From NCBI GenBank assembly GCA_016935835.1, contig JAFGQE010000024.1, positions 12,338-76,337 of the forward strand: DNA of 64,000 nucleotides, in the 5' to 3' direction. The notes under the pieces were generated by a model. That model did no database searches and was not told the DNA's origin. It worked only from the letters and a program-made list of their open reading frames with translations. The position numbers and the translations under genes were made by a program. Origin of the DNA: Clostridia bacterium. GTDB lineage: Bacteria; Bacillota; Clostridia; DUPQ01. Positions 8,611-64,000 of the stretch are shown piece after piece; the first letter of the stretch is position 1, and every line of letters begins with the position of its first letter.

Positions 8611-8700
8611 ACACCCCGCTGTTTTTTACTTTTTCATGATATTGCACGTTTATTTTTCTGTCAAATCAAAGGCATGGCGCGCAAGGCCATGGGAATATCG

Positions 8701-8761: not shown

Positions 8762-10594
8762 TCAGTTTGCCGCGCCATGCCTGCCGCGCACGGTGTACGT
8801 GGTATGGAGCAACTCATGGGACGTGTGCCCGAGCGGTTTTCCGAGGAATTCCTCATATATTTTAACTATGTCAGGATTCTCGTGGGATTTTCTGATTTTC
8901 TTTCCCTCATCCTCCCGGTACAATGCAGCCATTCGCTTTTCCTTTGCCTTCTCATCCCTGGGCCTTGGCTGACCACCACCGTTTATGCAGCCCCCCGGGC
9001 ATCCCATTACTTCTATGAATAGATACAGGCTCTCTCCATCCTTGATTTCATTCATAAGAATCCCCGCCCCCACAAGCCCGCTCGTTACGGCTACTTTCAC
9101 GGCGACTCCATTGAGGAAAGCCCATTCCTCCTTTGCATTCTCAATCACAAGCTCCGCGGTCTTGATTCTTTCGAAGCCCGCGATAGGGGCAACATGCAAC
9201 TTGTCAAAAGGCAATTGCCTTCCGGTGACCAGCTCATAGACAGTTCTGAGCGCCGCCTCCATGACGCCCCCTGTTGACCCGAATATATCTGCCGCTCCTG
9301 AAGACAGCCCAAGGGGACTGTCAAATCCGCCATCGGCGAGTTTCTCAAAATTTATTCCGGCTTCCTTGATCATCCTTGCCAGTTCCCTTGTCGTCAGTAC
9401 GGCGTCGACATTCGCAACTCCTCCGTTGACCATTTCAGGTCTGGTTATCTCATACTTTTTTGCAGTGCACGGCATTATGGATACCACATACATATCCTCC
9501 GGCCTTACCCCGATTTTTTCGGCGAAATATGATTTTGCAAGGGCGCCCAGCATCATATGGGGGGACTTGCAGGATGAAACGTTGCCGAGCTGTCCGGGAT
9601 AGTAATGCTCTATGAATTTTATCCAGCCCGGGCTGCAGCTTGTTATCATTGGAATTGTTGCATTGACATTCCTGTGAAGTCCCAGTTCATCAATTTTTTT
9701 TGCAGAAATCGCTCCCTTTTGATAAAGCATCCCGACAATTCTATTTAGGAACTCAGTTCCTTCCTCGATTATAGTAAGGTCGGCCGCGAAGTTTGTGTCG
9801 AATACATGGTCAAAACCCATATCCCTTAGGGCGGAGGCCATTTTCCCCGTGACAAGCGTACCCGCCTCATACCCGAATTCTTCACCCAGCGCCGCCCGTA
9901 TCGCGGGGGCGGTCTGAACAACCACCGTCTTAGCGGGATTTGCCAGCGCAGCCCAGACATCCTGGGTCGAGTCCTTTTCATGAAGTGCGTTCACAGGGCA
10001 TACAACAGTACACTGTCCGCAGTTTGTGCACGCCGCTTGCCCAAGCAGGGTTTTGCCCCCGGCGCTTATAGCCGATGCGAATCCCCTGTCCTGTGCGTTA
10101 AGAATTCCCACCCCCTGCACCTCATTGCATATCGTGACGCATCTCCTGCAAAGAATGCACTTCGCGGCATCCCTTACTATGGAAGGACTGCTTTCATCTA
10201 TATATTCCTTCGATTTCTCTCCTTCATAGCTGCTTTCATCGGCCTGTATTATTTCACCGACAGCCTGCAATTCGCAGCTCTTGTTCCTTGAGCAGCTAAG
10301 ACAGTCCTTGGGGTGGTCGGAAAGGATGAGCTCATACATTATCTTCCTTGATTCGCGAACCCTTTCAGTGTTCGTCCTAACCACCATGCCCTCCGATGCA
10401 GGTGTTACGCATGAGGCCTGCAGAGTCCTGGCTCCCTCGACTTCAACCATGCATATTCTGCACGAACCGGTTTTATGAATATTTTCAAGATGACATAAGG
10501 TCGGTATTTTGACATTAAGTTTCCTGGCGGCATCCAGGATAGTAGCCCCTTCCGGGACGCTTACAGATTTTCCGTTGACAGTCAGATTTATCAT
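8762..10594 (-). CDS. hydA: [FeFe]-hydrogenase-like catalytic subunit (HydA / StnC-like) with N-terminal [2Fe-2S], His-ligated and 2x[4Fe-4S] ferredoxin domains
   Basis: H-domain motifs L2 'MPCTAKKYE' and L3 'EVMGCPGGCINGGGQP' are present. L1 reads 'TSCSPGW' instead of TSCCPxW. The N-terminus has CxxC clusters and 'HPKDCLSCSRNKSC'. ATG at 10594 with an RBS GGAAGG. Confidence 0.8.
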   Translation of the reverse strand: MINLTVNGKSVSVPEGATILDAARKLNVKIPTLCHLENIHKTGSCRICMVEVEGARTLQASCVTPASEGMVVRTNTERVRESRKIMYELILSDHPKDCLSCSRNKSCELQAVGEIIQADESSYEGEKSKEYIDESSPSIVRDAAKCILCRRCVTICNEVQGVGILNAQDRGFASAISAGGKTLLGQAACTNCGQCTVVCPVNALHEKDSTQDVWAALANPAKTVVVQTAPAIRAALGEEFGYEAGTLVTGKMASALRDMGFDHVFDTNFAADLTIIEEGTEFLNRIVGMLYQKGAISAKKIDELGLHRNVNATIPMITSCSPGWIKFIEHYYPGQLGNVSSCKSPHMMLGALAKSYFAEKIGVRPEDMYVVSIMPCTAKKYEITRPEMVNGGVANVDAVLTTRELARMIKEAGINFEKLADGGFDSPLGLSSGAADIFGSTGGVMEAALRTVYELVTGRQLPFDKLHVAPIAGFERIKTAELVIENAKEEWAFLNGVAVKVAVTSGLVGAGILMNEIKDGESLYLFIEVMGCPGGCINGGGQPRPRDEKAKEKRMAALYREDEGKKIRKSHENPDIVKIYEEFLGKPLGHTSHELLHTTYTVRGRHGAAN

Positions 10595-10602
10595 ATCTTC
10601 GC

Positions 10603-13600
10603 CTAACCTTCCCGCCTGTCGCAACGCAGGCACCTCATTGCTTCGGCAGTAGCATTCAGCTTGTGAAATCCCAGTGAAACCTCATTGAAATTACCTTTCC
10701 TGTCCTTTGGATCAAGCCATTTCATCTCGAATCTCTCATGCTCCACCAATTCCGATTCATCGAAATTCATCGGTATTTCAATTTCCCTGCCCTTGTTCAG
10801 AATACCGGTGCCGCCTAGGAATCTATCTATTGCGGATGCGGCTTTCTTTCCATCGGCTATGGCAGTTATTACGGCATCGGATCCCCTGACCACGTCGCCT
10901 CCGGCAAAAATTCCTTCCATGGTTGTCATCTGTGTATCCCTGTCGACGACAAATGTCCCCCATTTCGTTATCTGAACCTCTTCCTTGCTCACAAACGGCA
11001 AATCCGAGTACTGGCTGACCGCCGGAATTATCATGTCGGCTTCTATCCTTACGGTTTCCCCGCTGCATTCCCTCGGAATCTTTCTTCCTCCCGAATCAAA
11101 TCCACGCAGTTCCATTTTTTGGCATTCGACAAATTCAATCTTTCCGTTTCCCCTGAATGCCACCGGCGACATCAACTGGTGAATCCTGACGCCCTCTTCC
11201 ATTGCGTCATTTATTTCCCTGGCATCCGCCGGCATGTCTTTTTTAGTTCTTCTGTACAATATATGAACTTCATCGGCTCCAAGCCTGAGCGCAACCCTTG
11301 CCGCGTCAATCGCCGTGTTGCCACCTCCGATGACAATGACCCTGCCGCTGACTTCAGTAAGCCTGCCAAGATGAACATCCTTCAAAAAGTCGAGCCCATG
11401 GTATACGCCGGGCATGTTTTCCCCTTCAATCCCGATTTCCTTTGAAACCTGTGCACCGGTCGCAATATATATCGAATCATGCCTGTCCTTTATTTCTTTG
11501 AAGGTTATATTCTTTCCCACTTCAGTTTCCGTCAGTATTTTTATGCCTATTTGCTTTAGTGTATTTATTTCCTTTTGCAGTATCTCCTTGGGCAGCCTGT
11601 ACTCGGGTATTGCATAGGCCAGCATCCCGCCCGCTATTTTCTCGGCTTCGTAGACCGTCACATCATACCCAAGCCTGCCAAGATAATATGCGCATGTAAG
11701 TCCCGAAGGCCCGGCTCCGATTATACCGACCGATTTATCCCTTTTTCTTGAAATGATATCAGAGAACGGGCTAGTGTCCTTCATGGCCTCATCGGCCGCA
11801 TATCTCTTCAAATCCATGATTGCAATCGGATCATCCAGCTGAGCCCTTCTGCACCTGCTTTCACAAGGATGCGTGCAAACCCTTCCGCAAACCGACGGGA
11901 ACGGATTCTCCCTTCGGATGAGATTATATGCGTCCTTCACCCTTCCTGCCGCGATAAGCGCTATATAACCCGGAACATTGACTCCCGCCGGGCATGCGTT
12001 TTCACACGGGGATATGAAAAGATCAGAACAAACGCCCGCCCTGCAGTATTTGTCCCTGATATGCTCTTCATATTCCTCCCTGAAGTATTTTATTGTGCTC
12101 AATACGGGATTGGGTGCAGTTTGCCCGAGGCCGCACAAGGCTGTGTCCTTTATCGCCTTTCCAAGCTTCTCAAGCTTCTCGATGTCGCCTTCCTTTCCCT
12201 TTCCCTTTGTAATCCTTTCAAGGATTTCCAGCATTCTTTTCGTTCCAAGCCTGCATGCCACGCATTTGCCACATGATTCATCCTGTACGAACTCCATGAA
12301 GAATCTCGCCACATCAACCATGCAGGTGTCCTCATCCATGCATATCAAACCTCCGGACCCCATGATTGCGCCAAGCTCCACCAAGGAGTCATAATCCACC
12401 GGGACATTAAGATGCTCTCCCGTAAGGCATCCGCCGGACGGGCCCCCGGTTTGCGCCACTTTGAATTTCTTGCCTCTTGGTATTCCGCCGCCAACATCAA
12501 AAATGACTTCACCCAGCGTAATTCCCATCGGAACCTCAATTATTCCGGTATTGTTTATATCCCCTGCAAGCGCAAAGACCTTTGTCCCCTTGCTTTTTTC
12601 CGTTCCTATTTGCGAAAACCAGTCCGCCCCGTTGAGTATGATGCTCCTTACGTTTCCAAAGGTCTCCACATTGTTTATTATGGTCGGTTTTCCGAACAGT
12701 CCCTTTTCAGAAGGATACGGCGGCTTTTGCCTCGGTTCCCCCCTCTGCCCTTCAACTGATGCAATCAGGGCGGTTTCCTCGCCGCATACAAAAGCACCCG
12801 CCCCTATTCTTATTTCAATATCAAAGTCAAGGCCTTTTTCAAAGATATTCTTTCCAAGTAAATTCGCTTTTTTTGCCTGCCCAAGGGCATTCTCAAGTCT
12901 CTCGACCGCAAGCGGATATTCAGCCCTGACATACACATATCCCTTGTTCGCACCGATTGCATATGCGGCTATTGCCATTCCTTCTATCAGGCTGTGCGCA
13001 TCCCCTTCCAAAAGACTTCTGTCCATGAATGCACCAGGGTCCCCTTCGTCTGCGTTGCATATGACATATTTTTCATTCCCCGGGCTCTTGTTGGCAAGCT
13101 TCCACTTCAGTCCGGTAGGGAAACCCCCGCCGCCCCTTCCCCTCAGACCGGACCGGGTCATCTCGGAAATAACATCATCGGGGGTCATTTCCGAAAGAAC
13201 TTTGTACAAACCCATGTATCCATCATTCACAACATATTCCTCAAGCGACAGGCAATCAATGCTCCCGCAGTTCTTCAGCACTATCTTCTGCTGGCTTTTG
13301 AAAAAATCTATGTCCTTGATAAATGGAACCGGTTCGCCCGTTTCCTTGTCCTTAATGCAGAATTCCGTTGCTATCCCGCCTTCGATTATGTCCTTGCGCA
13401 CAATTGTTTCCATGTCCTGTGGCCCAAGGTTGCAATAGAAGACATCCCCCGGTTTTACTATCATCGCAGGGCCGATGTTGCATGTTCCCATGCATCCAGT
13501 CAGTTTCAAGTCTATTTTCTTATCCGGGCAAAGTCTGGCCAGCGCCTTTACAAGGGCATCCTTGACCGCCCCGCAGTTCGATGAAATGCATCCGGCGCCC

Positions 13601-13701
13601 GAACATATCAGTATGGTATAGTCATATTGCCTTTGTCTCTCCAGATAGCCCGCCTTTATTTCTTCAAGGTTCTTTCTTCCATTGATTGGTTTTGAACTCA
13701 T
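10603..13701 (-). CDS. hydB: NuoF-like FMN/NAD(H) subunit (HydB-like), fused at the C-terminus to a GltD/NfnB-like FAD/NAD(P)H oxidoreductase domain
   Basis: 1032 aa. The N-terminus is a thioredoxin-like [2Fe-2S] domain, followed by the NuoF motifs ('GRGGGGFPTGLKW', 'ESCGKCVACRLG'). Then come a GltD-type 2x[4Fe-4S] region and an 'IIGAGPSGL' Rossmann fold. RBS AGGAGG. Confidence 0.8.
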   Translation of the reverse strand: MSSKPINGRKNLEEIKAGYLERQRQYDYTILICSGAGCISSNCGAVKDALVKALARLCPDKKIDLKLTGCMGTCNIGPAMIVKPGDVFYCNLGPQDMETIVRKDIIEGGIATEFCIKDKETGEPVPFIKDIDFFKSQQKIVLKNCGSIDCLSLEEYVVNDGYMGLYKVLSEMTPDDVISEMTRSGLRGRGGGGFPTGLKWKLANKSPGNEKYVICNADEGDPGAFMDRSLLEGDAHSLIEGMAIAAYAIGANKGYVYVRAEYPLAVERLENALGQAKKANLLGKNIFEKGLDFDIEIRIGAGAFVCGEETALIASVEGQRGEPRQKPPYPSEKGLFGKPTIINNVETFGNVRSIILNGADWFSQIGTEKSKGTKVFALAGDINNTGIIEVPMGITLGEVIFDVGGGIPRGKKFKVAQTGGPSGGCLTGEHLNVPVDYDSLVELGAIMGSGGLICMDEDTCMVDVARFFMEFVQDESCGKCVACRLGTKRMLEILERITKGKGKEGDIEKLEKLGKAIKDTALCGLGQTAPNPVLSTIKYFREEYEEHIRDKYCRAGVCSDLFISPCENACPAGVNVPGYIALIAAGRVKDAYNLIRRENPFPSVCGRVCTHPCESRCRRAQLDDPIAIMDLKRYAADEAMKDTSPFSDIISRKRDKSVGIIGAGPSGLTCAYYLGRLGYDVTVYEAEKIAGGMLAYAIPEYRLPKEILQKEINTLKQIGIKILTETEVGKNITFKEIKDRHDSIYIATGAQVSKEIGIEGENMPGVYHGLDFLKDVHLGRLTEVSGRVIVIGGGNTAIDAARVALRLGADEVHILYRRTKKDMPADAREINDAMEEGVRIHQLMSPVAFRGNGKIEFVECQKMELRGFDSGGRKIPRECSGETVRIEADMIIPAVSQYSDLPFVSKEEVQITKWGTFVVDRDTQMTTMEGIFAGGDVVRGSDAVITAIADGKKAASAIDRFLGGTGILNKGREIEIPMNFDESELVEHERFEMKWLDPKDRKGNFNEVSLGFHKLNATAEAMRCLRCDRREG

Positions 13702-13713
13702 ACAGCAATCCTC

Positions 13714-14214
13714 CTATTCATACTGCGCAAGGATCTGACGAAGTTTATTCGGATTTACACGTTTATAAACTGTATCGTCTATCGCAATTGCGGGAGCCAG
13801 TCCGCAGGCGCCGATGCATCTCATGACTTCAAGTGAAAAAGTCATGTCCTTGGTCGTTTCCCCTACATCAATCTCCAGCAATTCCTTTATTCTTTCCACT
13901 ATCTTGCTTCCGCCCCTTACATAACAGGCGGTTCCAAGGCAGACTTTTATGGTATGCTTCCCCTTGGGTTGCGTTGAGAACAGGGAATAAAAGGAAACGA
14001 CTCCCTGGATCCTTGACATGGAAAGATTCATCTCGTCCGCTATTGTAATCAAGACGTTTTCCGGCAGGTAGCCAAAGATCGCCTGCGCCATGTGGAGAAT
14101 TTGAATCAGATTGCTTTCCTTTGCCTCATACTTTTCTATGGTTTGCCTAAGAAGTGAAAATTTCTCATTTTCATTGATTTCGCAGCATCCGCACTGCGTC
14201 TCATTGTTTGACAT
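13714..14214 (-). CDS. hydC: NuoE-like thioredoxin-fold [2Fe-2S] subunit (HydC-like)
   Basis: 166 aa with 'CLGTACYVRGG...CIGACGLAP' NuoE cysteine motifs. RBS GGGGGTG. First gene of the three-gene operon. Confidence 0.8.
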   Translation of the reverse strand: MSNNETQCGCCEINENEKFSLLRQTIEKYEAKESNLIQILHMAQAIFGYLPENVLITIADEMNLSMSRIQGVVSFYSLFSTQPKGKHTIKVCLGTACYVRGGSKIVERIKELLEIDVGETTKDMTFSLEVMRCIGACGLAPAIAIDDTVYKRVNPNKLRQILAQYE

Positions 14215-14470
14215 TGATGCACCCCCGTTATTTTTTCATAATCCCCGCAGAATCAGAGTCATGTGTTTGATTCATTCGGCAATGCCCTCCGTCATGCGGT
14301 TTCGTGCAGTCTCCGGATGTGGGCTGCACGGCAATTCATATGACCCGGACCAAGCTTACTCTTCATTGGAATCCCCAAATTTCCTATGAAAAAACGGATG
14401 CCGCCAAGTCCCTGATAATTAATGATCAACTTGGATGGCCGGGTCTGCAGTGGCAACCGCATTCAAAAGA

Positions 14471-14554
14471 TTGTCAAATATTTATCAATCTTTAATAAAT
14501 ATTATACAATTGTAAATACTGTTTGCGCAAGTACTTTTGTGAATTATTTATCAA
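14471..14554. promoter_or_regulatory. two copies of an 18-bp Rex-like operator (TTGTCAAATATTTATCAA at 14471-14488; TTGTGAATTATTTATCAA at 14537-14554) flanking a candidate minus-strand promoter (-10 TATAAT = complement of 14501-14506)
   Basis: The repeated motif is close to the Rex consensus TTGTGAA-N4-TTCACAA. It lies in the upstream region of the hydC-hydB-hydA operon. Confidence 0.4.
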
Positions 14555-29824: not shown

Positions 29825-31018
29825 TCAGCCAAGGGCTGCCTTGAATTCCTTTATCAACAGAGGCAGGATTTCCATTGCATCGCCGACTATGCCAAAGGTG
29901 GCAACCTTGAAGATGGGAGCGTCGGGATTCTTGTTAATGGCGACTATGATGTCAGATGATGACATACCCGCAAGATGCTGCACGGCCCCGGAAATTCCAC
30001 AGGCAAAATAAACATGGGGTCCGACGGTCTGCCCCGTCTGTCCGACCTGGTGGTTGTATTCTATCCAGCCCGCATCCACGGTAGCCCTTGATGCCCCCAC
30101 CGCACCGCCCAGCACTTCGGCGAGCTCGTTTATCAATTTGAAATTCTCAGGGGCCCCGAGTCCCCTTCCTCCCGAAACTATGACATCGGCTTCCGCCAGC
30201 GAAACCATTTCAAATATCGTCTTTACAACTTCCCTGACCTTGACCGATGTCTCCCGGGGGATACTGACCTCCGGCCTTGTCACGAGGCCCTTCCTGCTGT
30301 AGTCAGGTTCGAGCGGCTTCATTACCTTGTGCCTGACGGTTGCCATCTGGGGCCTGTGGTTGGGGCATATTATGGTTGCCATCAGATTGCCGCCGAACGC
30401 CGGCCTGGTCTGAAGAAGCTTGCCGTCCGCCGGGTCTATCTCAAGCCTTGTGCAATCCGCAGTCAGGCCTGTGTTTATTCTTGACGCTATCCTTGGTGCA
30501 AGAGATCTTCCATATGTAGTCGCCCCCATAAGAAGTATCTCCGGCCTTCCTTTTCTTATCATCTGCACAAATATGTCCGAATAGGATTCATCATTATACA
30601 CTGCAAGTGACCCGTCCTCGACTGCCATTACTTCATCCGCCCCGTATGCTATGAGCTTTTCACATGCATCCGAAAGCTTGTCGCCGATGACCACCGCAGT
30701 CAGCCGCGTTTTCCTGTCGTCGGCCAGTTTCCTGCCGGCTCCGAGCAATTCGTATGAAATGGGCTCGGGCACCCCGTTCTTTTGTTCTGCAAAAATCCAA
30801 ACCCCGCTGTATTTTGTTATGTCAACAGCATTTGATACCGGCCCTTTTTCATAATCAATCGCATTGAATTTGCATGCGGGCACACATATTCCGCACAAAG
30901 TGCAGTTATCAAGTATCACCGCTTTTCGTCCGTCCATCCTGATTGCCCCGAAAGGGCATGCCTTGACACATAGCCTGCATCCTATGCAGCTTTCTTCGAT
31001 TATTCTTATTCCTGACAT
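29825..31018 (-). CDS. etfA: electron transfer flavoprotein alpha subunit with an N-terminal 2x[4Fe-4S] ferredoxin domain (CarE/FixB-like)
   Basis: N-terminal 'CIGCRLCVKACP...CTLCGICVPACK', then the EtfA fold and FAD-binding C-terminus. RBS GGGAG. Confidence 0.8.
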   Translation of the reverse strand: MSGIRIIEESCIGCRLCVKACPFGAIRMDGRKAVILDNCTLCGICVPACKFNAIDYEKGPVSNAVDITKYSGVWIFAEQKNGVPEPISYELLGAGRKLADDRKTRLTAVVIGDKLSDACEKLIAYGADEVMAVEDGSLAVYNDESYSDIFVQMIRKGRPEILLMGATTYGRSLAPRIASRINTGLTADCTRLEIDPADGKLLQTRPAFGGNLMATIICPNHRPQMATVRHKVMKPLEPDYSRKGLVTRPEVSIPRETSVKVREVVKTIFEMVSLAEADVIVSGGRGLGAPENFKLINELAEVLGGAVGASRATVDAGWIEYNHQVGQTGQTVGPHVYFACGISGAVQHLAGMSSSDIIVAINKNPDAPIFKVATFGIVGDAMEILPLLIKEFKAALG

Positions 31019-31030
31019 TTGTATCTCCCG

Positions 31031-31825
31031 TTATTTGACTGTCATGAATTTCATTGACAGCAATTTTTCCGCCAGCCGTTTTACCTGTTCCCCGGGGGTT
31101 CCCTCTATCATTTCGCTATTGACATCATGCACCGGCACAAATGTTTCAACCACCTGTGTCGGCGAGCCCTTAAGACCGCACAAATCCTTGTCCGCCCCTA
31201 TATCGTCGGCCGTCATTATCCTGATTTCCGCTTTTTTCGCCTTCATCATTCCCTTGAGAGAGGGAAGCCTTGGTTCATTTATTTCCTTGACAACCGTAAT
31301 GACCGCAGGCAGCGGCATCTCTATAACCTCATACCCGTCCTCGGTCATCCGCTGGCACCTTATATAGCCTTTGCGGATTTCCTCTATTTTCCTGACATAT
31401 GTCGTATGGGGTATGCCAAGTTTTTCGGCAAGTCCCGGGCCCACCTGGGCGGTATCCCCGTCCATTGCCTGCTTGCCGCAAATGACCAGGTCGAAATCGC
31501 CGATTTTGTTTATCCCCTTTGACAGGGCATATGAAGTCGCCAATGAATCGGAGCCTGCAAAAGCCCTGTCGCTGAGCAAAACCGCCTCATCTATGCCAAC
31601 CGCAATAGTTTGCCTGAGCAGCTCAGCGACGCTGGGGATTCCCATGCTTATGACCGTGGCCTTGCCGCCTGTCTGTTCCTTGATCCTGACACCTTCCTCA
31701 ACGGCATATGTATCAAAGGGATTTATTATCGCTTCCGCTCCTTCGCGTATTATCGTATTTGTTTCCTTGTTCATCTTTACTTCATTGGTTCCGGGAACCT
31801 GCTTCACGCAGACTATTACATTCAT
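31031..31825 (-). CDS. etfB: electron transfer flavoprotein beta subunit
   Basis: 'MNVIVCVKQVPGT...' EtfB N-terminus. RBS AAAGGAG. Confidence 0.8.
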   Translation of the reverse strand: MNVIVCVKQVPGTNEVKMNKETNTIIREGAEAIINPFDTYAVEEGVRIKEQTGGKATVISMGIPSVAELLRQTIAVGIDEAVLLSDRAFAGSDSLATSYALSKGINKIGDFDLVICGKQAMDGDTAQVGPGLAEKLGIPHTTYVRKIEEIRKGYIRCQRMTEDGYEVIEMPLPAVITVVKEINEPRLPSLKGMMKAKKAEIRIMTADDIGADKDLCGLKGSPTQVVETFVPVHDVNSEMIEGTPGEQVKRLAEKLLSMKFMTVK

Positions 31826-31843
31826 CTTTGCTCCTTTGCCATC

Positions 31844-33001
31844 CTATTTAGAAACCTTCTGGCTCTTAATCAATTCAAGCGCGATTACATTTCTCTGAAT
31901 CTGGTTCGTGCCTTCGTAAATCTGTGTTATCTTGGCGTCCCTCATCATTTTCTCAACGGGATATTCCTTCATGTACCCATATCCGCCCATTACCTGAACG
32001 GCGTCGACCGTGACCTTCATCGCCGTATCTGATGCAAAGACCTTTGATATCGCCGATTCCTTCGATATGGATTTTGCACCGCCGTCAATGTGCCTGCAGG
32101 TCTGATATACAAGGCACCTTGCGGCTTCTATCTGAATAGCCATGTCGGCAAGCATGTGCTGTATGGCCTGGAAGGATGATATCGGTTTGTCAAACTGAAC
32201 GCGCTCGCCGGAGTATTTAAGCGCCTCGTCAAAAGCCCCCTGTGCAATTCCCAGTGCTTGCGAGGCAACGCCCGGCCGTGTCCTGTCCAGCGTCTTCATT
32301 GCAACCAGGAATCCCATTCCTTCCCTTGCAAGAAGATTTTCCCTTGGAATCCTGCAGTCTTCAAAGACAAGCTCGCTGGTTACGGACGCCCTGATTCCCA
32401 TCTTGTTTTCCTTTTTGCCAAAGGAAAACCCAGGCGTGCCCTTTTCAACTATGAATGCGCTGAAGCCCCTTGCACCCTTGGATCTGTCGGTGCACGCTAT
32501 TACTGTATATACCTCGGCCTCTCCCCCGTTTGTTATCCATTGCTTGGTGCCGTTAAGGATATATTCATCCCCGTCGGCCTTTGCAGTTGTTTGTATCCCC
32601 GCGGCATCGCTGCCCGCGTTTGCCTCGGTGAGCCCGAATGCGGCAAGCTTCTTGCCTTGGGCTATGTCGGGCAGATATTTTGCCTTCTGTTCCTCTGTTC
32701 CGAAAAGTATTATCGGGTATGTACCCAGGCCGGTTCCTGCATATGCAAGCGCTATTCCCCCGCAAGCCCGGCTCAACTCCTCTACGACCAGCGCCATTTC
32801 AAAAATTCCACCCCCGAAACCGCCGTACTCCTCAGGTATGTATACTCCGAAAAGGTCGGAGTCGGCAAGCACCTTCACTATATCCCTTGGGAAAATTCCC
32901 TCTTCGTCGTATTTCAATGCCACCGGTTTTATCTTTTCGTCGGCGATCTTTGCAGCCAGGTCTTTTATCATCTGCTGTTCTTCGGTTAAAAAATAATTCA
33001 T
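31844..33001 (-). CDS. bcd: acyl-CoA dehydrogenase (butyryl-CoA dehydrogenase / CarC-like)
   Basis: 385 aa with the acyl-CoA dehydrogenase signatures 'GLTEANAGSD' and 'QWITNG', and a C-terminal catalytic Glu region. RBS GGGAGAG. Confidence 0.8.
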   Translation of the reverse strand: MNYFLTEEQQMIKDLAAKIADEKIKPVALKYDEEGIFPRDIVKVLADSDLFGVYIPEEYGGFGGGIFEMALVVEELSRACGGIALAYAGTGLGTYPIILFGTEEQKAKYLPDIAQGKKLAAFGLTEANAGSDAAGIQTTAKADGDEYILNGTKQWITNGGEAEVYTVIACTDRSKGARGFSAFIVEKGTPGFSFGKKENKMGIRASVTSELVFEDCRIPRENLLAREGMGFLVAMKTLDRTRPGVASQALGIAQGAFDEALKYSGERVQFDKPISSFQAIQHMLADMAIQIEAARCLVYQTCRHIDGGAKSISKESAISKVFASDTAMKVTVDAVQVMGGYGYMKEYPVEKMMRDAKITQIYEGTNQIQRNVIALELIKSQKVSK

Positions 33002-35200: not shown

Positions 35201-35821
35201 TTATAAATCTGTCAGAATTACCCGCGCAGGAGCTCCGTCACCCCCCTTTATTTTAAGCGGAAGGGCATGCATCATATAAGTGCCCCCGGGAACATCCCTG
35301 AGCCTGAGTCCCTCAATGATTATGCAGCCTGCGTTCATCAGTGCAAGATGCGTTTCGTGCCCCGGCTGTCCCCTTTCAATTCCCAGCGCGTCTATTCCAA
35401 CCCCGGGCACTCTTTTTTCAGCCAGGAAATCAGCGCCGCTTTTCTCCAGATATACGAAGTTGCCGTCGAATTCATCAGTAAACGAATTCCGGGTCTTCAT
35501 TATTACAAAATCATCCGGGTCAATCCTTTCCTTTAGCAGCCTGGCGGCGGTTATGCCATCCTCCACGTCAGTCAGGTCGATGACCACGGCCCTGGAAATC
35601 AGCTTTGCCAGGTCGACCGATTCGATGGTTGCGCCGTTCTTGAGCATATGAAAAGGTGCATCAATATGGGTTCCGGTATGCAAACCGATCGTCATCTTTG
35701 ATTCATTTATGCCCTTTTCCCCAAACTCATGAATCATCTCTTTTTTCAGCCTTTTTGAGTCACTATTATTATAAGCCATCATGTTTTCATGAATTTCCAT
35801 TGATATATCATATATTCTCAT
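35201..35821 (-). CDS. cyclase family protein (kynurenine formamidase-like)
   Basis: 'HTGTHIDAPFH' metal-binding motif of the cyclase family (PF04199). An RBS AGGAGGG precedes the ATG at 35821, and this start overlaps the zwf stop by 14 nt. Confidence 0.7.
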   Translation of the reverse strand: MRIYDISMEIHENMMAYNNSDSKRLKKEMIHEFGEKGINESKMTIGLHTGTHIDAPFHMLKNGATIESVDLAKLISRAVVIDLTDVEDGITAARLLKERIDPDDFVIMKTRNSFTDEFDGNFVYLEKSGADFLAEKRVPGVGIDALGIERGQPGHETHLALMNAGCIIIEGLRLRDVPGGTYMMHALPLKIKGGDGAPARVILTDL

Positions 35822-37346
35822 TTTTTCCCTCCTTTTCGTGCCACCAGGCCCTTCCGTCTCTTTCAATCATTTCGTATGCTTCCGTCGGGCCCTTTGTCCC
35901 GGTTGCATAATTGGGGTAATCGCGTCTGCCTTCGGATGCCATCCTGTCAATGCTTTCTATAAATCTCCATGAAAGCTCCAGTTCATCCCACCTTGTGAAC
36001 AGGGATGCATCATTGTTGACGGCTCCCATTATCAACTTTTCATATGCCTCGGGCGAATTGTCCTCATACAGGCAGCTGTGGCAGTAATTCATGTCCACCG
36101 GTCCGAAATTAAATCCGTCGCCCGGTTTTTTTGCATTGATTCTGAAAAAAACGCCTTCCTCGGGCTGTATCCTGATAACCAGGACATTCTGTTGTATATG
36201 TCCTGCACTCCCCGGGAACATGGGGACTGTTTTGTCTTTAAAATATATTATGACACACGTGGCCTTTTTATGCAGTCTCTTGCCTGCGAATATGTAAAAC
36301 GGGACGCCTCTCCATCTGCGGTTGTCGATGCGAGTTTTCAGCGCTATGAAAGTTTCTGTTTCAGAATCCGGGGGAATTCCTTCTTCCTGCCTGTATCCCG
36401 GCGCCCCGGCCCCTTCGGTGAATCCTTCCCCGTACTGGCCCCTGACGATATTTTTGCCCGGGTCGCTTCCATCATACAGCCTGATGTTTTTCAGAACCTT
36501 CACTTTCTCATCCCTGATGGCCTCGGGGCCCAATGATGCGGGCGGTTCCATCGCAATCAGGGAAAGCATCTGGAGAATATGGCTCTGAAGCATATCCCTT
36601 ACTATTCCGGTCTTGTCATAATACCGTCCCCTGCTCCCCACTCCAAGCGTCTCGCTTGAAACAATCTGTACATTGTCTATGTATTTTTCATTCCAGATTG
36701 GTTCAAAAATTGAATTTCCAAAGCGAAGCGAAAGTATATTCTGGATCATTTCCTTTCCCAGATAGTGGTCTATCCTGAATATCTTGTCCTCGGGCAGCAT
36801 CTTCGATATGCTCTGATTCAGTCTCCAGGCTGTTTCAAGGTCGGATCCAAATGGTTTTTCAATCATTACCCTCTGCCACGAATCCTTGTTATCAAGCATC
36901 CGGTGCTCATAAAGTTTTTTGATTATCATTTCAAAGAACTCGGGGGCAACCGCCAGATAATACATTCTATTTCCCTTGGTTTTTCTCCCAGGATCCATTT
37001 CCGAGTAAGCTTTTTGCAGTTCTTCATATCCTTCGTCCTTATTGAAATCAATGTTTTTATAAACAACCCTTTTCCTGAAAGTTTCCCAATCCCTTTCATT
37101 AATTGTCTTTTTTAATTCATTTTCAATGAAATTCTTCATTTCACCCATATAGGACTCATTGCTCTTGTCGCGGCGGCCGACCGCGACAATGAAAAAGTCT
37201 TCAGGCAGCCTGTTTTGGCCATGCAGGGTGAACAAGGCAGGAATCAGCTTTCGTTTTGTCAGGTCCCCCGTTGCGCCGAATATTGTAAAGATGCAGCTTT
37301 CAGATATTTTCATTGCCGTACTCGCTTTCAGTTTCATATTCATCAC
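35808..37346 (-). CDS. zwf: glucose-6-phosphate 1-dehydrogenase
   Basis: 'FGATGDLTKRKL' NADP site and the 'DHYLGKE' active-site motif. The start is ambiguous between the ORF-track start at 37346 and the ATG at 37310. Confidence 0.85.
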   Translation of the reverse strand: MMNMKLKASTAMKISESCIFTIFGATGDLTKRKLIPALFTLHGQNRLPEDFFIVAVGRRDKSNESYMGEMKNFIENELKKTINERDWETFRKRVVYKNIDFNKDEGYEELQKAYSEMDPGRKTKGNRMYYLAVAPEFFEMIIKKLYEHRMLDNKDSWQRVMIEKPFGSDLETAWRLNQSISKMLPEDKIFRIDHYLGKEMIQNILSLRFGNSIFEPIWNEKYIDNVQIVSSETLGVGSRGRYYDKTGIVRDMLQSHILQMLSLIAMEPPASLGPEAIRDEKVKVLKNIRLYDGSDPGKNIVRGQYGEGFTEGAGAPGYRQEEGIPPDSETETFIALKTRIDNRRWRGVPFYIFAGKRLHKKATCVIIYFKDKTVPMFPGSAGHIQQNVLVIRIQPEEGVFFRINAKKPGDGFNFGPVDMNYCHSCLYEDNSPEAYEKLIMGAVNNDASLFTRWDELELSWRFIESIDRMASEGRRDYPNYATGTKGPTEAYEMIERDGRAWWHEKEGKNENI

Positions 37347-62606: not shown

Positions 62607-63227
62607 TTACTTATTGTTTTTCCTGTTCTTTATTACCTTGAGCCGGGAGAAATCCTCCCTTTCTTTTTCCTCTATATATTCCTGTATGTATTTTACGATT
62701 TCCCTGTATTTGGGAATTACGATGTTCTTGAGGGCATTCGCTCTTTTTTTTGTCTTTATTACATTTACGGCCAGCCTGTATACGGCATTTTCCACTTCCG
62801 CAAGCTCCGCCGTAAGCGCCTTCACCTCGTTGAATTTTTCATATGCCTCATCAAGGGCGGAACTCGTTCTTGAGAAACCGTACTTGGGTTCGAGCCTGGG
62901 CTTTACAAAATCAACCATCGGTATTTCGACCCCCATGATGCTTCGGAACCTTATCGAGACCGAGTCATCTTCCGGGAACGTATATCCCAGCTGCTCCACA
63001 TTGCTTATGCCCAGGGTTATATTGGCCGACTGCAGGGCGTAATATGCATCCTTGAACGTCGAATCGATTCTCGACTGAACCACCTGGGCTTTATCGATTA
63101 GGGACATCATCTCCATGGTCAGGATGTTTCTTTTTTTATCAAGAAGCTCATAACCCTGGCTTGAAAGCGAAAGGGTGTTCTTTGCCTTTATCAGGTTTCC
63201 CTTCGTTGGAGAGATTCCGGGTTCCAT
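62607..63227 (-). CDS. ntpD: V-type ATP synthase subunit D
   Basis: 206 aa coiled-coil protein 'PTKGNLIKAKNTLSL...'. It follows subunit B with abutting stop and start codons. RBS GGAGGAGG. Confidence 0.8.
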   Translation of the reverse strand: MEPGISPTKGNLIKAKNTLSLSSQGYELLDKKRNILTMEMMSLIDKAQVVQSRIDSTFKDAYYALQSANITLGISNVEQLGYTFPEDDSVSIRFRSIMGVEIPMVDFVKPRLEPKYGFSRTSSALDEAYEKFNEVKALTAELAEVENAVYRLAVNVIKTKKRANALKNIVIPKYREIVKYIQEYIEEKEREDFSRLKVIKNRKNNK

Positions 63228-64000
63228 CAGATTACCCCTCCTCCCGATTCATCGTAATATTTTTCAAACAGTTCAGGTGAAAGCCTGTCCAGCTCCTCCC
63301 TGGGAAGGCTTGATATTATTTTCCATCCGAGATCCAGTGTCTTTTCCATGTCCCGGTTCTCGTCATGAAGCTGTTTTAGGAATTTTTCCTCGAACATTCT
63401 TCCGAATTTCATGTACTTCCTGTCCGTTTCACTCAGCTCATCCTCGCCTATTACTGTTGCCAGTGCACGTACTTCCTGGACCTTTGCATATGATGCGAAC
63501 AGCTGATTAGATATGCCGGGATGGTCTTCCCTGGTCAGGCCCCCGCCTATGCTGTCTTTCATCAGCCTTGACAGCGACATCAGAATGCTTACCGGCGGAT
63601 ATATTCCCCTTTGAGACAAGTCCCTTTCGAGGACAACCTGCCCCTCGGTAATATATGCGGTAAGGTCCGGCACCGGATGGGTTATGTCATCATTCGGCAT
63701 TGTAAGTATGGGAATCTGGGTAATCGAGCCCTTCCGCCCCTCGATTATGCCGGCCCTCTCATACATTGAGGCCAGATCGCTGTACAGGTACCCGGGGAAC
63801 CCTTTCCTGCTGGGTATTTCCTCCATGGATGAGGATATTTCCCTTAGTGCTTCAGCATATGAAGTCATGTCCGTCATTATTACAAGCACATGCATTCCTT
63901 TTTCAAACGCAAGGTACTCCGCGGCGGTCAGCGCGCATCTTGGAGTCGTTATTCTTTCTACAACAGGATCATTTGCAAGATTAAGAAACATGACAACCTT
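63227..64000 (-). CDS. ntpB: V-type ATP synthase subunit B (partial; 5' end lies beyond the window)
   Basis: '...[29 protein letters not shown]...' nucleotide-binding beta-like subunit C-terminal half. Confidence 0.85.

Follow-up and report, generated by a model that had tools for sequence, protein, structure and literature searches.

In anaerobes, the exchange between H2 and the pools of NADH and ferredoxin is gated mainly by hydrogenases of the HydABC type. Among them, the HydABC of Acetobacterium woodii, which carries a TSCSP version of the L1 motif, has been structurally solved and found to be a spectroscopically normal, active bifurcating hydrogenase (Katsyv et al. 2023, PMC10021017). 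In the Stn complex of Sporomusa ovata, a GltD module is located in the StnC subunit, joined there to a domain resembling NuoG and formate dehydrogenase; StnC has no H-domain, and a ferredoxin-like C-terminus is retained in StnB (PMC10482914). By the rule used in HydDB, a hydrogenase with a GltD but not a NuoF partner falls into group A2, and one with a NuoF partner into group A3. Here, we describe a three-gene operon in a stretch of 64,000 nucleotides from a Clostridia bacterium (GenBank assembly GCA_016935835.1, contig JAFGQE010000024.1, positions 12,338 to 76,337; hereafter the window, with positions counted from its first letter), in which the gene order is hydC, then a NuoF-GltD fusion, and then hydA, all on the minus strand. 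In the fusion subunit, a Stn-type GltD module stands at the place of the ferredoxin-like domain of HydB. We give about an even chance to the reading that this operon encodes a functional HydABC-type hydrogenase, with H2 coupled to NAD(H) at flavin mononucleotide (FMN) and to NADP(H) at flavin adenine dinucleotide (FAD).

The NuoF-GltD fusion subunit

An earlier reading of the letters made without database searches (the sequence-only reading) had called a minus-strand operon of NuoE-like, NuoF-like, and HydA-like genes, and all three open reading frames (ORFs) were found where it had placed them. The middle one (10603-13701; this and all further operon and promoter features lie on the minus strand) encodes 1032 amino acids (aa). 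Here, Pfam recognized a thioredoxin-like [2Fe-2S] domain (residues 22-102), Complex1_51K (182-351, 6.5e-48), SLBB, and NADH_4Fe-4S (463-547, 6e-36), followed in the C-terminal part by Fer4_20 (554-642, 5.7e-25) and Pyr_redox_2 (657-951, 4.8e-34). The C-terminal half also matches the NCBIfam models TIGR01316 gltA (2e-112) and PRK12814 (1.4e-146), and these hidden Markov model hits bear out the C-terminal GltD/NfnB-type domain of about 450 aa that had been suspected from the letters.

Judged by Pfam and by alignment to A. woodii HydB (7q4v_B, 739 bits), the HydB/BfuB core comprises residues 1-558 (12028-13701). Its sites are the N-terminal [2Fe-2S] cluster (B5, residues 33-74), the FMN/NADH site GRGGGGFPTG (188-197), the [4Fe-4S] cluster B1 (C477, C480, C483, and C523), and the linker with the Zn(B2) site (His547/Cys553/Cys558). 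In fact, all ligand motifs are present for C1 of BfuC and for the FMN, B1, B2/Zn site, and N-terminal [2Fe-2S] of BfuB. Alignment to four solved BfuBs (A. woodii HydB, Acetomicrobium mobile NiFe-HydB, S. ovata StnB, and Thermoanaerobacter kivui HydB) ends at about residue 562, with the homology running through the EHIRDKxCxAxxC Zn/B2 linker and ending after EHIRDKYCRAGVC. The C-terminal ferredoxin-like B3/B4 domain of BfuB is absent from the fusion, the GltD module being found there rather than a CxxCxxCxxxCP ferredoxin domain. At the junction, the last Zn-site cysteine (C558) and the first GltD-cluster cysteine (C566) are only seven residues apart, and the first GltD cluster is therefore at the sequence position of B3. 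In the NfnABC of T. sibiricus, ferredoxin was seen bound 12.8 Å from B3/B4 (PMC12018979), and deletion of the HydB C-terminus in HydABC led to low bifurcation activity (PMC10021017); by these two results, the domain swapped out is the ferredoxin exit of a canonical HydB.

The GltD/NfnL-type module, delimited by alignment and conservation, spans residues 563-1032 (10606-12015), and from residue 564 to its last residues the fusion aligns end to end with modules of the GltD type. It contains eight cysteines for two [4Fe-4S] clusters (C566, C570, C605, C609, C613, C617, C1024, and C1027), along with Lys632, the FAD motif GAGPSG (662-667), Arg702, and the NADPH motifs GGGNTA (792-797) and YRR (816-818). 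The module is matched best by 9n5u_A (C. saccharolyticus NfnA, 1.5e-117), 9bov_A, and 8oh5_C (S. ovata StnC), and NfnB/NfnL structures rank after these Stn-type ones (4ylf_B, 1.2e-97; 5jca_L, 6.9e-95). Moreover, the module is circularly permuted, such that its very C-terminus is formed by the NFNEV...RCLRC segment (RCLRC at 1023-1027), with which NfnB and GltD begin; StnC and NfnA have the same permutation. Lys632 aligns with StnC Lys170 and is a lysine in 170 of 173 homologues; the K170 position provides the non-cysteine ligand of the FAD-proximal cluster in StnC, and is a glutamate in bifurcating NfnB (PMC10482914). The GxGxxA and YRR motifs likewise agree with NADPH-binding homologues. Because of these best matches, the circular permutation, Lys632, and the two NADPH motifs, the module is assigned to the non-bifurcating Stn/Nfn-Bfu type. 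Altogether, the fusion would carry two flavin and two pyridine-nucleotide sites, just as the sequence-only reading had anticipated and as the GltD-type motifs bear out.

The HydA subunit and its L1 motif

The product of hydA (8762-10594) is the catalytic subunit of a [FeFe] hydrogenase, 610 aa long, with an M3-type F-domain, an H-domain, and a small-subunit-like C-terminus. Although the mechanical ORF starts at a GTG (10633), we prefer the ATG at 10594 as the start, since solved HydAs align with the protein from residue 3 of that version onwards. Its Pfam domains are Fer2_4, a NuoG-type 4Fe-4S domain, two Fer4, Fe_hyd_lg_C (3.6e-89), and Fe_hyd_SSU. With 853.9 bits (cutoff 765), the protein scores above threshold for NCBIfam NF040763 (FeFe_hydrog_A6, 'NADH-dependent [FeFe] hydrogenase, group A6'), as it does for TIGR02512 (478.1 bits, cutoff 405.95), and its best solved-structure match is A. 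woodii HydA (7q4v_A, 1.9e-179).

The L1 motif is found at 9623-9643 (HydA residues 318-324). Its codons, ACA AGC TGC AGC CCG GGC TGG, were read again and give TSCSPGW, the second AGC (9634-9632) being Ser321, while L2 (MPCTAKKYE) and L3 (EVMGCPGGCINGGGQP) are canonical; in all this the first reading of the letters was accurate. It was also right that the substituted cysteine is a cluster ligand. Ser321 aligned with Cys300 of CpI (Clostridium pasteurianum), Cys299 of T. kivui, and Ser301 of A. woodii, which is the ligand position of [4Fe-4S]H (PMC10021017), and the proton-relay Cys320 is retained, as are the F-domain clusters. More conspicuously, the L1 region of 7q4v_A, PMITSCSPGWIKFIE (PMITSCSPGW, Ser301), is identical to that of the window HydA. 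Because the A6 score exceeds its cutoff, L2, L3, Cys320, and the F-domain are intact, and the same L1 occurs in the active A. woodii enzyme, we regard HydA as in all likelihood a genuine group A [FeFe] hydrogenase subunit with an H-cluster.

Among 42 full-length HydAs from 80 related genome loci (numbered L001 onwards), TSCSP is present in 39, namely in 25 of the 26 at fusion loci and 14 of the 16 at loci with only a plain HydB. Since the motif is near-universal in related HydAs irrespective of the type of HydB, TSCSP is a regular feature of the clade, unlinked to the fusion and uninformative on loss of function. The cysteine-to-serine exchange, once taken as a sign that HydA may lack a normal H-cluster, is ruled out as such a sign by the PMITSCSPGW of the active A. 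woodii hydrogenase and by the 39 of 42 related HydAs. TSCSPxW is thus a functional L1 variant, and filters that demand TSCCPxW discard real hydrogenases.

Directly before L1, there is a clade-specific loop insertion of about 22 aa (HydA residues 287-313, 9656-9736). The fusion-linked HydAs closest to the window protein (L001-L009, L016) conserve this loop, and those of the next clade (L010-L017, L032) have a shorter one; it is missing from the HydAs of plain-HydB loci and from all solved structures. Here, it could serve as a contact surface for the GltD module.

In the surroundings of orthologous fusion operons, five of 69 flanking ORFs gave weak matches to [FeFe]-hydrogenase families (TIGR04105, best 1.7e-58) and are HydS-like. 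These candidates (L005 1926-4598, L009 2573-5188, L018 2276-4039, L019 2154-4022, and L041 2225-4057) look like HydS-type putative H2 sensors upstream of the operon, though the batch scan yields counts only and tblastn HydA matches back the ORFs of L009 and L018 alone. The 64-kb window has no such HydS-like ORF. Such paralogues beside orthologous operons were counted as support for a real hydrogenase.

Conservation, distribution and partner swapping

The fusion of the window has the same sequence as MBN2557496.1, a protein from a Clostridia metagenome-assembled genome (MAG) that is annotated merely as 'FAD-dependent oxidoreductase'. More than 120 clusters (at 90% identity) have the same length and at least 67% identity to it, and among the organisms in culture Clostridium sediminicola and Sinanaerobacter chloroacetimidivorans carry it. 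When the library was reduced to representatives at 50% identity, the Firmicutes group formed one cluster, which was followed by about 12 further full-length fusion clusters (33-46% identity) and by many fragments spanning the fusion junction. The subtype is widespread: the genomes that carry it number in the hundreds and belong to Bacillota, Spirochaetota, Firestonebacteria, and other groups. In an alignment of 173 fusion proteins, every predicted ligand is conserved at 94-100%, the positions scored being the B5 cysteines, the FMN loop, the B1 cysteines, His547/Cys553/Cys558, the eight GltD cysteines, Lys632, Arg702, GxGxxA, and YRR. Judged from this conservation, the ligands of the fusion appear to be under purifying selection.

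The hydC-fusion-hydA operon recurs in Clostridia, Peptococcaceae, Ca. Dichloromethanomonas, Sporobacter, Fermentithermobacillaceae, Firestonebacteria, and Spirochaetota/Treponema, and in Dehalococcoidia, Aminicenantes, and Deltaproteobacteria the NuoE and fusion pair is located beside a formate dehydrogenase of the FdhA type or beside NuoG-like and GltB-like proteins. Because the pair adjoins HydA, FdhA, or NuoG-like/GltB-like partners in different taxa, NuoE and NuoF-GltD seem to behave as a portable module. Moreover, a canonical set of NuoE, plain NuoF, and BfuA lies directly downstream of the fusion operon in L003 (6050-9446) and L021 (9072-11829), its third gene being a full TSCSP HydA in L003 and the NuoG-like N-terminal part of HydA alone in L021. 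This side-by-side arrangement argues that the fusion-type and canonical operons differ in function and are not redundant. In a neighbour-joining tree of the NuoF cores (midpoint root), the fusion cores make up one large Firmicutes clade and several scattered clades among the plain HydBs, though the tree, for which the regular-expression fusion call mislabelled L034 and the truncated L039, is too rough to tell origins from losses.

At the level of individual loci, FdhA takes the place of HydA after the fusion in MAGs of Deltaproteobacteria, Dehalococcoidia, and Chloroflexi (L028 9088-11770, L029 9017-11756, L031 8997-11772, and L034 9006-12015). The FdhA frame of L034 has an in-frame stop directly after 'HCARL', which is consistent with a selenocysteine codon. 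In MAGs of Aminicenantes and Pseudomonadota (L024 9139-11516 and L035 9171-11444), two genes follow the fusion, one for a NuoG-like iron-sulfur protein (about 240 aa) and one for a protein (about 530 aa) that, going by its letters, resembles the glutamate synthase FMN domain (GltB-like); the module may thus have a further, third type of catalytic partner. We also noticed proteins of about 640-650 aa (P0212, P0227, P0241, P0250, P0252, and P0280-P0284) that match only fusion residues from about 430 to 1029, which is the B1 domain with GltD and without the FMN domain. They may form a family of their own, related to the fusion (compare NCBIfam PRK12771), and could be an intermediate in its evolution.

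Proposed mechanism and alternative explanations

If our favoured reading is correct, HydA would make or consume H2 at a normal H-cluster, with serine for one cysteine ligand of the [4Fe-4S] cluster, as in A. woodii. Electrons would pass between the H-cluster, the iron-sulfur chain of HydA, and B1/FMN, where NAD(H) reacts, and a second branch would lead over the mobile [2Fe-2S] cluster of HydC and the GltD clusters to FAD. This branch most likely ends at NADP(H), because the ferredoxin exit domain is replaced by a Stn-type GltD module. The predicted reaction would be 2 H2 + NAD+ + NADP+ <-> NADH + NADPH + 2 H+, in which NADP(H) would act as the lower-potential partner, the usual role of ferredoxin. 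With in vivo potentials of about -370 mV for NADPH and about -340 mV for H2 at 250 Pa (PMC6288185), and about -280 mV for NADH (PMC9304861), coupling of the two nucleotides would be energetically sensible. In the uptake direction, exergonic reduction of NAD+ could pull the reduction of NADP+ at low H2, such that H2 could make NADPH. In the direction of evolution, with NADPH as a second donor H2 could rise to a higher level than with NADH only, no reduced ferredoxin being needed, and a fermenter at low H2 pressure would vent NADH and NADPH together as H2. Within this picture, it is established that the domain has been replaced, that the ligands are conserved, that the signatures resemble Stn more than NfnB, and that a hydrogenase with TSCSP is active.

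Several points weigh against an H2:NAD+/NADP+ enzyme, however. Its substrates, their stoichiometry, and an energetic coupling, if there is one, have all been deduced, and the NADPH specificity has been assigned solely by motif similarity. The first cysteine of CGRVCTHPCESRC (CGRVC) is kept as in NfnB, while StnC is without it, and so the cluster ligation may differ from that in Stn. Modules of the NfnB type dock ferredoxin at the distal cluster, and ferredoxin could bind between HydC and the GltD module; in the archaeal case, Greening et al. 2024 (PMC11216029) guessed that the GltA-type domain on HydB passes electrons to ferredoxin. Furthermore, none of the 50 annotated ORFs of the window is a hydE, hydF, or hydG maturase gene, and no maturase recurs beside 22 orthologous operons, although this result is uninformative because hydE/F/G are often unlinked. 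The annotated genes of the window do not include a rex gene either.

Alternatively, the GltD clusters may replace B3/B4 and dock ferredoxin themselves, with FAD/NADPH as an extra entry or exit, in which case a four-substrate enzyme would link H2, NAD(H), NADP(H), and ferredoxin and be both a hydrogenase and a Nfn/Stn-like transhydrogenase. We consider this a possibility on the unlikely side. All bifurcation features of BfuBC are retained (N-terminal [2Fe-2S], FMN, B1, Zn linker, and C1 of HydC), ferredoxin binds near the distal cluster in modules of the NfnB family (PMC5861303), and both the NfnB-like CGRVC pattern and the choice of ferredoxin as acceptor at the archaeal GltA-type domain (Greening et al. 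2024) fit with it. Moreover, for acetogens that have neither Nfn nor Stn, including Treponema primitia, the question of a third system has been raised (Kremp et al. 2020), and the fusion operon is found in Treponema and other Spirochaetota genomes, though this link is one of genus only, T. primitia itself not being confirmed as a carrier. Then again, the mapped ferredoxin site is the ferredoxin-like domain of BfuB, which is missing here, and Lys632 and the permutation group the module with the non-bifurcating, NADPH-input type.

A further option, which we regard as distinctly unlikely, is a non-bifurcating dual-cofactor hydrogenase with FMN/NADH and FAD/NADPH as independent, uncoupled entries that works at low H2 pressure only, similar to the Syntrophomonas wolfei enzyme extended to NADPH. 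The S. wolfei hydrogenase is reportedly ferredoxin-independent and NADH-dependent. The name of the NCBIfam family into which HydA falls points this way, as does the HydDB group A2, which joins HydA with a GltD-like protein, and it is known that non-bifurcating relatives are without B2-B5 (PMC9304861) and that GltD modules are commonly simple NAD(P)H:FeS input modules (PMC7483475). Nonetheless, the fusion, unlike a HydB of the S. wolfei type, keeps the N-terminal [2Fe-2S] cluster and the Zn linker of a bifurcating BfuB, and its core has 739 bits to a HydB that does bifurcate, that of A. woodii. Still far less probable, to a degree that we would call it highly improbable, is the option once raised by the sequence-only reading that the cysteine-to-serine exchange made the H-cluster defective and the complex a Stn/Nfn-like NADH/NADPH/ferredoxin transhydrogenase with no H2 metabolism. 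Ser321 does hold a cluster-ligand position, the GltD module is Stn-like, and the window has no maturase genes. But the same L1 is found in an active and spectroscopically normal hydrogenase (PMC10021017), the remaining H-cluster motifs are intact and appear to be under selection, and true Stn and Nfn-Bfu enzymes lack the H-domain outright instead of having it mutated. In addition, the GltD module sits on the HydB-like subunit, where it replaces the ferredoxin-binding domain that the Stn reaction needs.

Taken further, the coupling of H2 to both nucleotides that we prefer might be generalized. NuoE and NuoF-GltD would then be a portable bifurcating module, ferredoxin-independent and with NADP(H) as the low-potential partner of NAD(H), which would have formate:NAD+/NADP+ versions with FdhA and could possibly be the 'third system' that supplies NADPH to anaerobes lacking both Nfn and Stn. 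This generalization strikes us as rather doubtful.

Promoter region, transcription unit and genomic surroundings

Upstream of hydC, the paired Rex-like operators (14471-14554) of the first reading are both present. Box 1, TTGATAAATAATTCACAA (14537-14554), has one mismatch to the consensus TTGTKAANNNNTTMACAA and lies just upstream of, or overlaps, the -35 region, and box 2, TTGATAAATATTTGACAA (14471-14488), has two mismatches and lies downstream of the -10 element. Between the two boxes is a putative extended -10 element, TGTATAAT (14501-14508), as read from the letters; a consensus scan did not call a full -35/-10 pair there. The boxes are 18 bp each and 66 bp apart, both within 84 bp of one promoter, and are the only matches at two or fewer mismatches to the Rex operator consensus (the inverted repeat TTGTKAA-N4-TTMACAA) in the window. 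A window-wide count of two is not unusual, as it was reached in 27 of 100 shuffles, and what stands out is their clustering at one promoter. The closest ortholog, L002, also has two boxes, 68 bp apart. At the threshold used, Rex-like boxes occur upstream of the orthologs L002, L004, and L047 only, and the distant orthologs are mostly without them, so that Rex control would seem supported for close relatives only. Rex would control the operon by the NADH/NAD+ ratio. The 5' leader between the putative promoter and hydC (14215-14470) is unusually long at about 250 nucleotides (nt); no Rfam match beyond chance level was found for an RNA element in it, and there is a weak terminator-like hairpin (14393-14405). 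The long leader is a possible additional layer of regulation.

The first gene of the operon, hydC (13714-14214), was assigned by Pfam (PF01257, 8e-52) and by solved structures as a NuoE/BfuC-like subunit of 166 aa. Its C1 site is a thioredoxin-like [2Fe-2S] cluster with cysteines in CLGTAC and RCIGAC, and the best solved matches are BfuC subunits of bifurcating hydrogenases (7t2r_C, 8a6t_C, and 7q4v_C). N-terminal to the BfuC-homologous region, residues 7-11 (14182-14196) form a cysteine-rich QCGCC, and in the alignment T. kivui HydC likewise has a 'CC' near its N-terminus. At the other end of the operon, a terminator-like hairpin (8673-8691) is located about 70 nt 3' of the hydA stop codon, and the gene downstream has its own promoter, TTGACA-17-TATCAT (8636-8664). 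Therefore, the three genes are a transcription unit of their own.

Around the operon lie genes of housekeeping and carbohydrate metabolism with no relation to it (GNAT, OsmC, threonine-aldolase-like, PII, peroxiredoxin, Crp-family regulator, GH92, and fucosidase). Elsewhere in the window, a minus-strand cluster (29825-33001) encodes an EtfA that begins with a ferredoxin domain of the 2x[4Fe-4S] kind (29825-31018), EtfB (31031-31825), and an acyl-CoA dehydrogenase (31844-33001); it is a flavin-based bifurcating system of the CarCDE/Bcd-Etf type and a second potential ferredoxin-reducing module on the contig. An NADPH-generating glucose-6-phosphate dehydrogenase (35808-37346, minus strand) may bear on an NADPH-venting role. 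Subunits D and B of a V/A-type ATPase (62607-63991, minus strand), at the edge of the window, are ordinary.

Comparison with known systems

The closest known system is the A. woodii HydABC(D) (PDB 7Q4V/7Q4W/8A5E; Katsyv et al. 2023), which has the same three core subunits. The likeness extends to HydA (1.9e-179), with identical PMITSCSPGW and canonical L2 and L3, to the HydB core (739 bits), with its N-terminal [2Fe-2S], FMN, B1, and Zn-site linker, and to HydC (2e-36). In contrast, A. woodii HydB ends in the 2x[4Fe-4S] ferredoxin-like B3/B4 domain that serves ferredoxin, where the window protein has a GltD module of about 470 aa with an FAD and an NADPH site, and the window HydA has the additional loop of about 22 aa before L1.

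With Stn and the Nfn-Bfu complexes (S. ovata 8OH5, C. saccharolyticus 9N5U, and T. sibiricus), the locus shares the type of GltD module, its permutation, the lysine, the conserved arginine, and the NADPH motifs, as well as the joining of such a module to a HydBC-like core. To this extent, the Stn-like composition suggested by the sequence-only reading stands, but the arrangement does not, since in Stn the module sits in StnC and there is no H-domain. There, and in NfnABC, the module is in the subunit at the BfuA position, where it serves as the mid-potential input instead of an H-domain, and the ferredoxin domain of BfuB is kept, whereas here the module is on BfuB in place of that domain, and the third subunit is a complete HydA without GltD. 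As for NfnAB (NfnSL), the homologous FAD/NADPH and 2x[4Fe-4S] subunit and the CGRVC...C...C pattern are shared; unlike NfnAB, however, the operon has no NfnA/NfnS (PyrK-like) partner, the module has lysine rather than glutamate, and its N-terminal segment has moved to the C-terminus.

In terms of classification, the GltD criterion of the HydDB group A2 ('glutamate synthase-linked') is shared, yet this group is excluded since the partner also has Complex1_51K and NADH_4Fe-4S. The NuoF criterion of group A3 ('bifurcating') is shared as well, but A3 is assumed to use NAD and ferredoxin, and the ferredoxin domain is gone here. Neither label describes a NuoF-GltD hydrogenase, and under the HydDB rule such enzymes are therefore silently labelled A3, current tools filing a HydA with a NuoF-type partner as NAD and ferredoxin bifurcating, its GltD domain notwithstanding. 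If NADP(H) is a substrate, the cofactor bookkeeping in metabolic models of H2 turnover and NADPH supply is wrong, and enzymology and NADPH-regenerating biocatalysis would gain a new coupling reaction.

As far as we found, a domain of the glutamate-synthase type on a HydB has been mentioned in print only once, for an archaeal hybrid [FeFe]/[NiFe] complex with a GltA-type domain on HydB, which was modelled (Greening et al. 2024, PMC11216029). Its catalytic partner is different, being a group F HydA-HyhS fusion with HyhL and HydD, and its acceptor was assumed to be ferredoxin. For the bacterial NuoF-GltD hydrogenase architecture, no biochemical description was found in the openly searchable literature, and the fusion goes unmentioned in the 2018 review of multimeric hydrogenases, the 2022 Bfu survey, and the papers on the Stn and Nfn-Bfu structures. 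Hence, while the TSCSP version of L1 is already known, the fusion is a widespread variant for which no biochemical description was found. Compared with the Bfu family as defined by Schut et al. 2022, one defining feature fails here, the invariant B3/B4. The modularity of the Bfu family makes such a variant unsurprising in principle, and still it is a concrete candidate for ferredoxin-independent H2:NAD+/NADP+ coupling.

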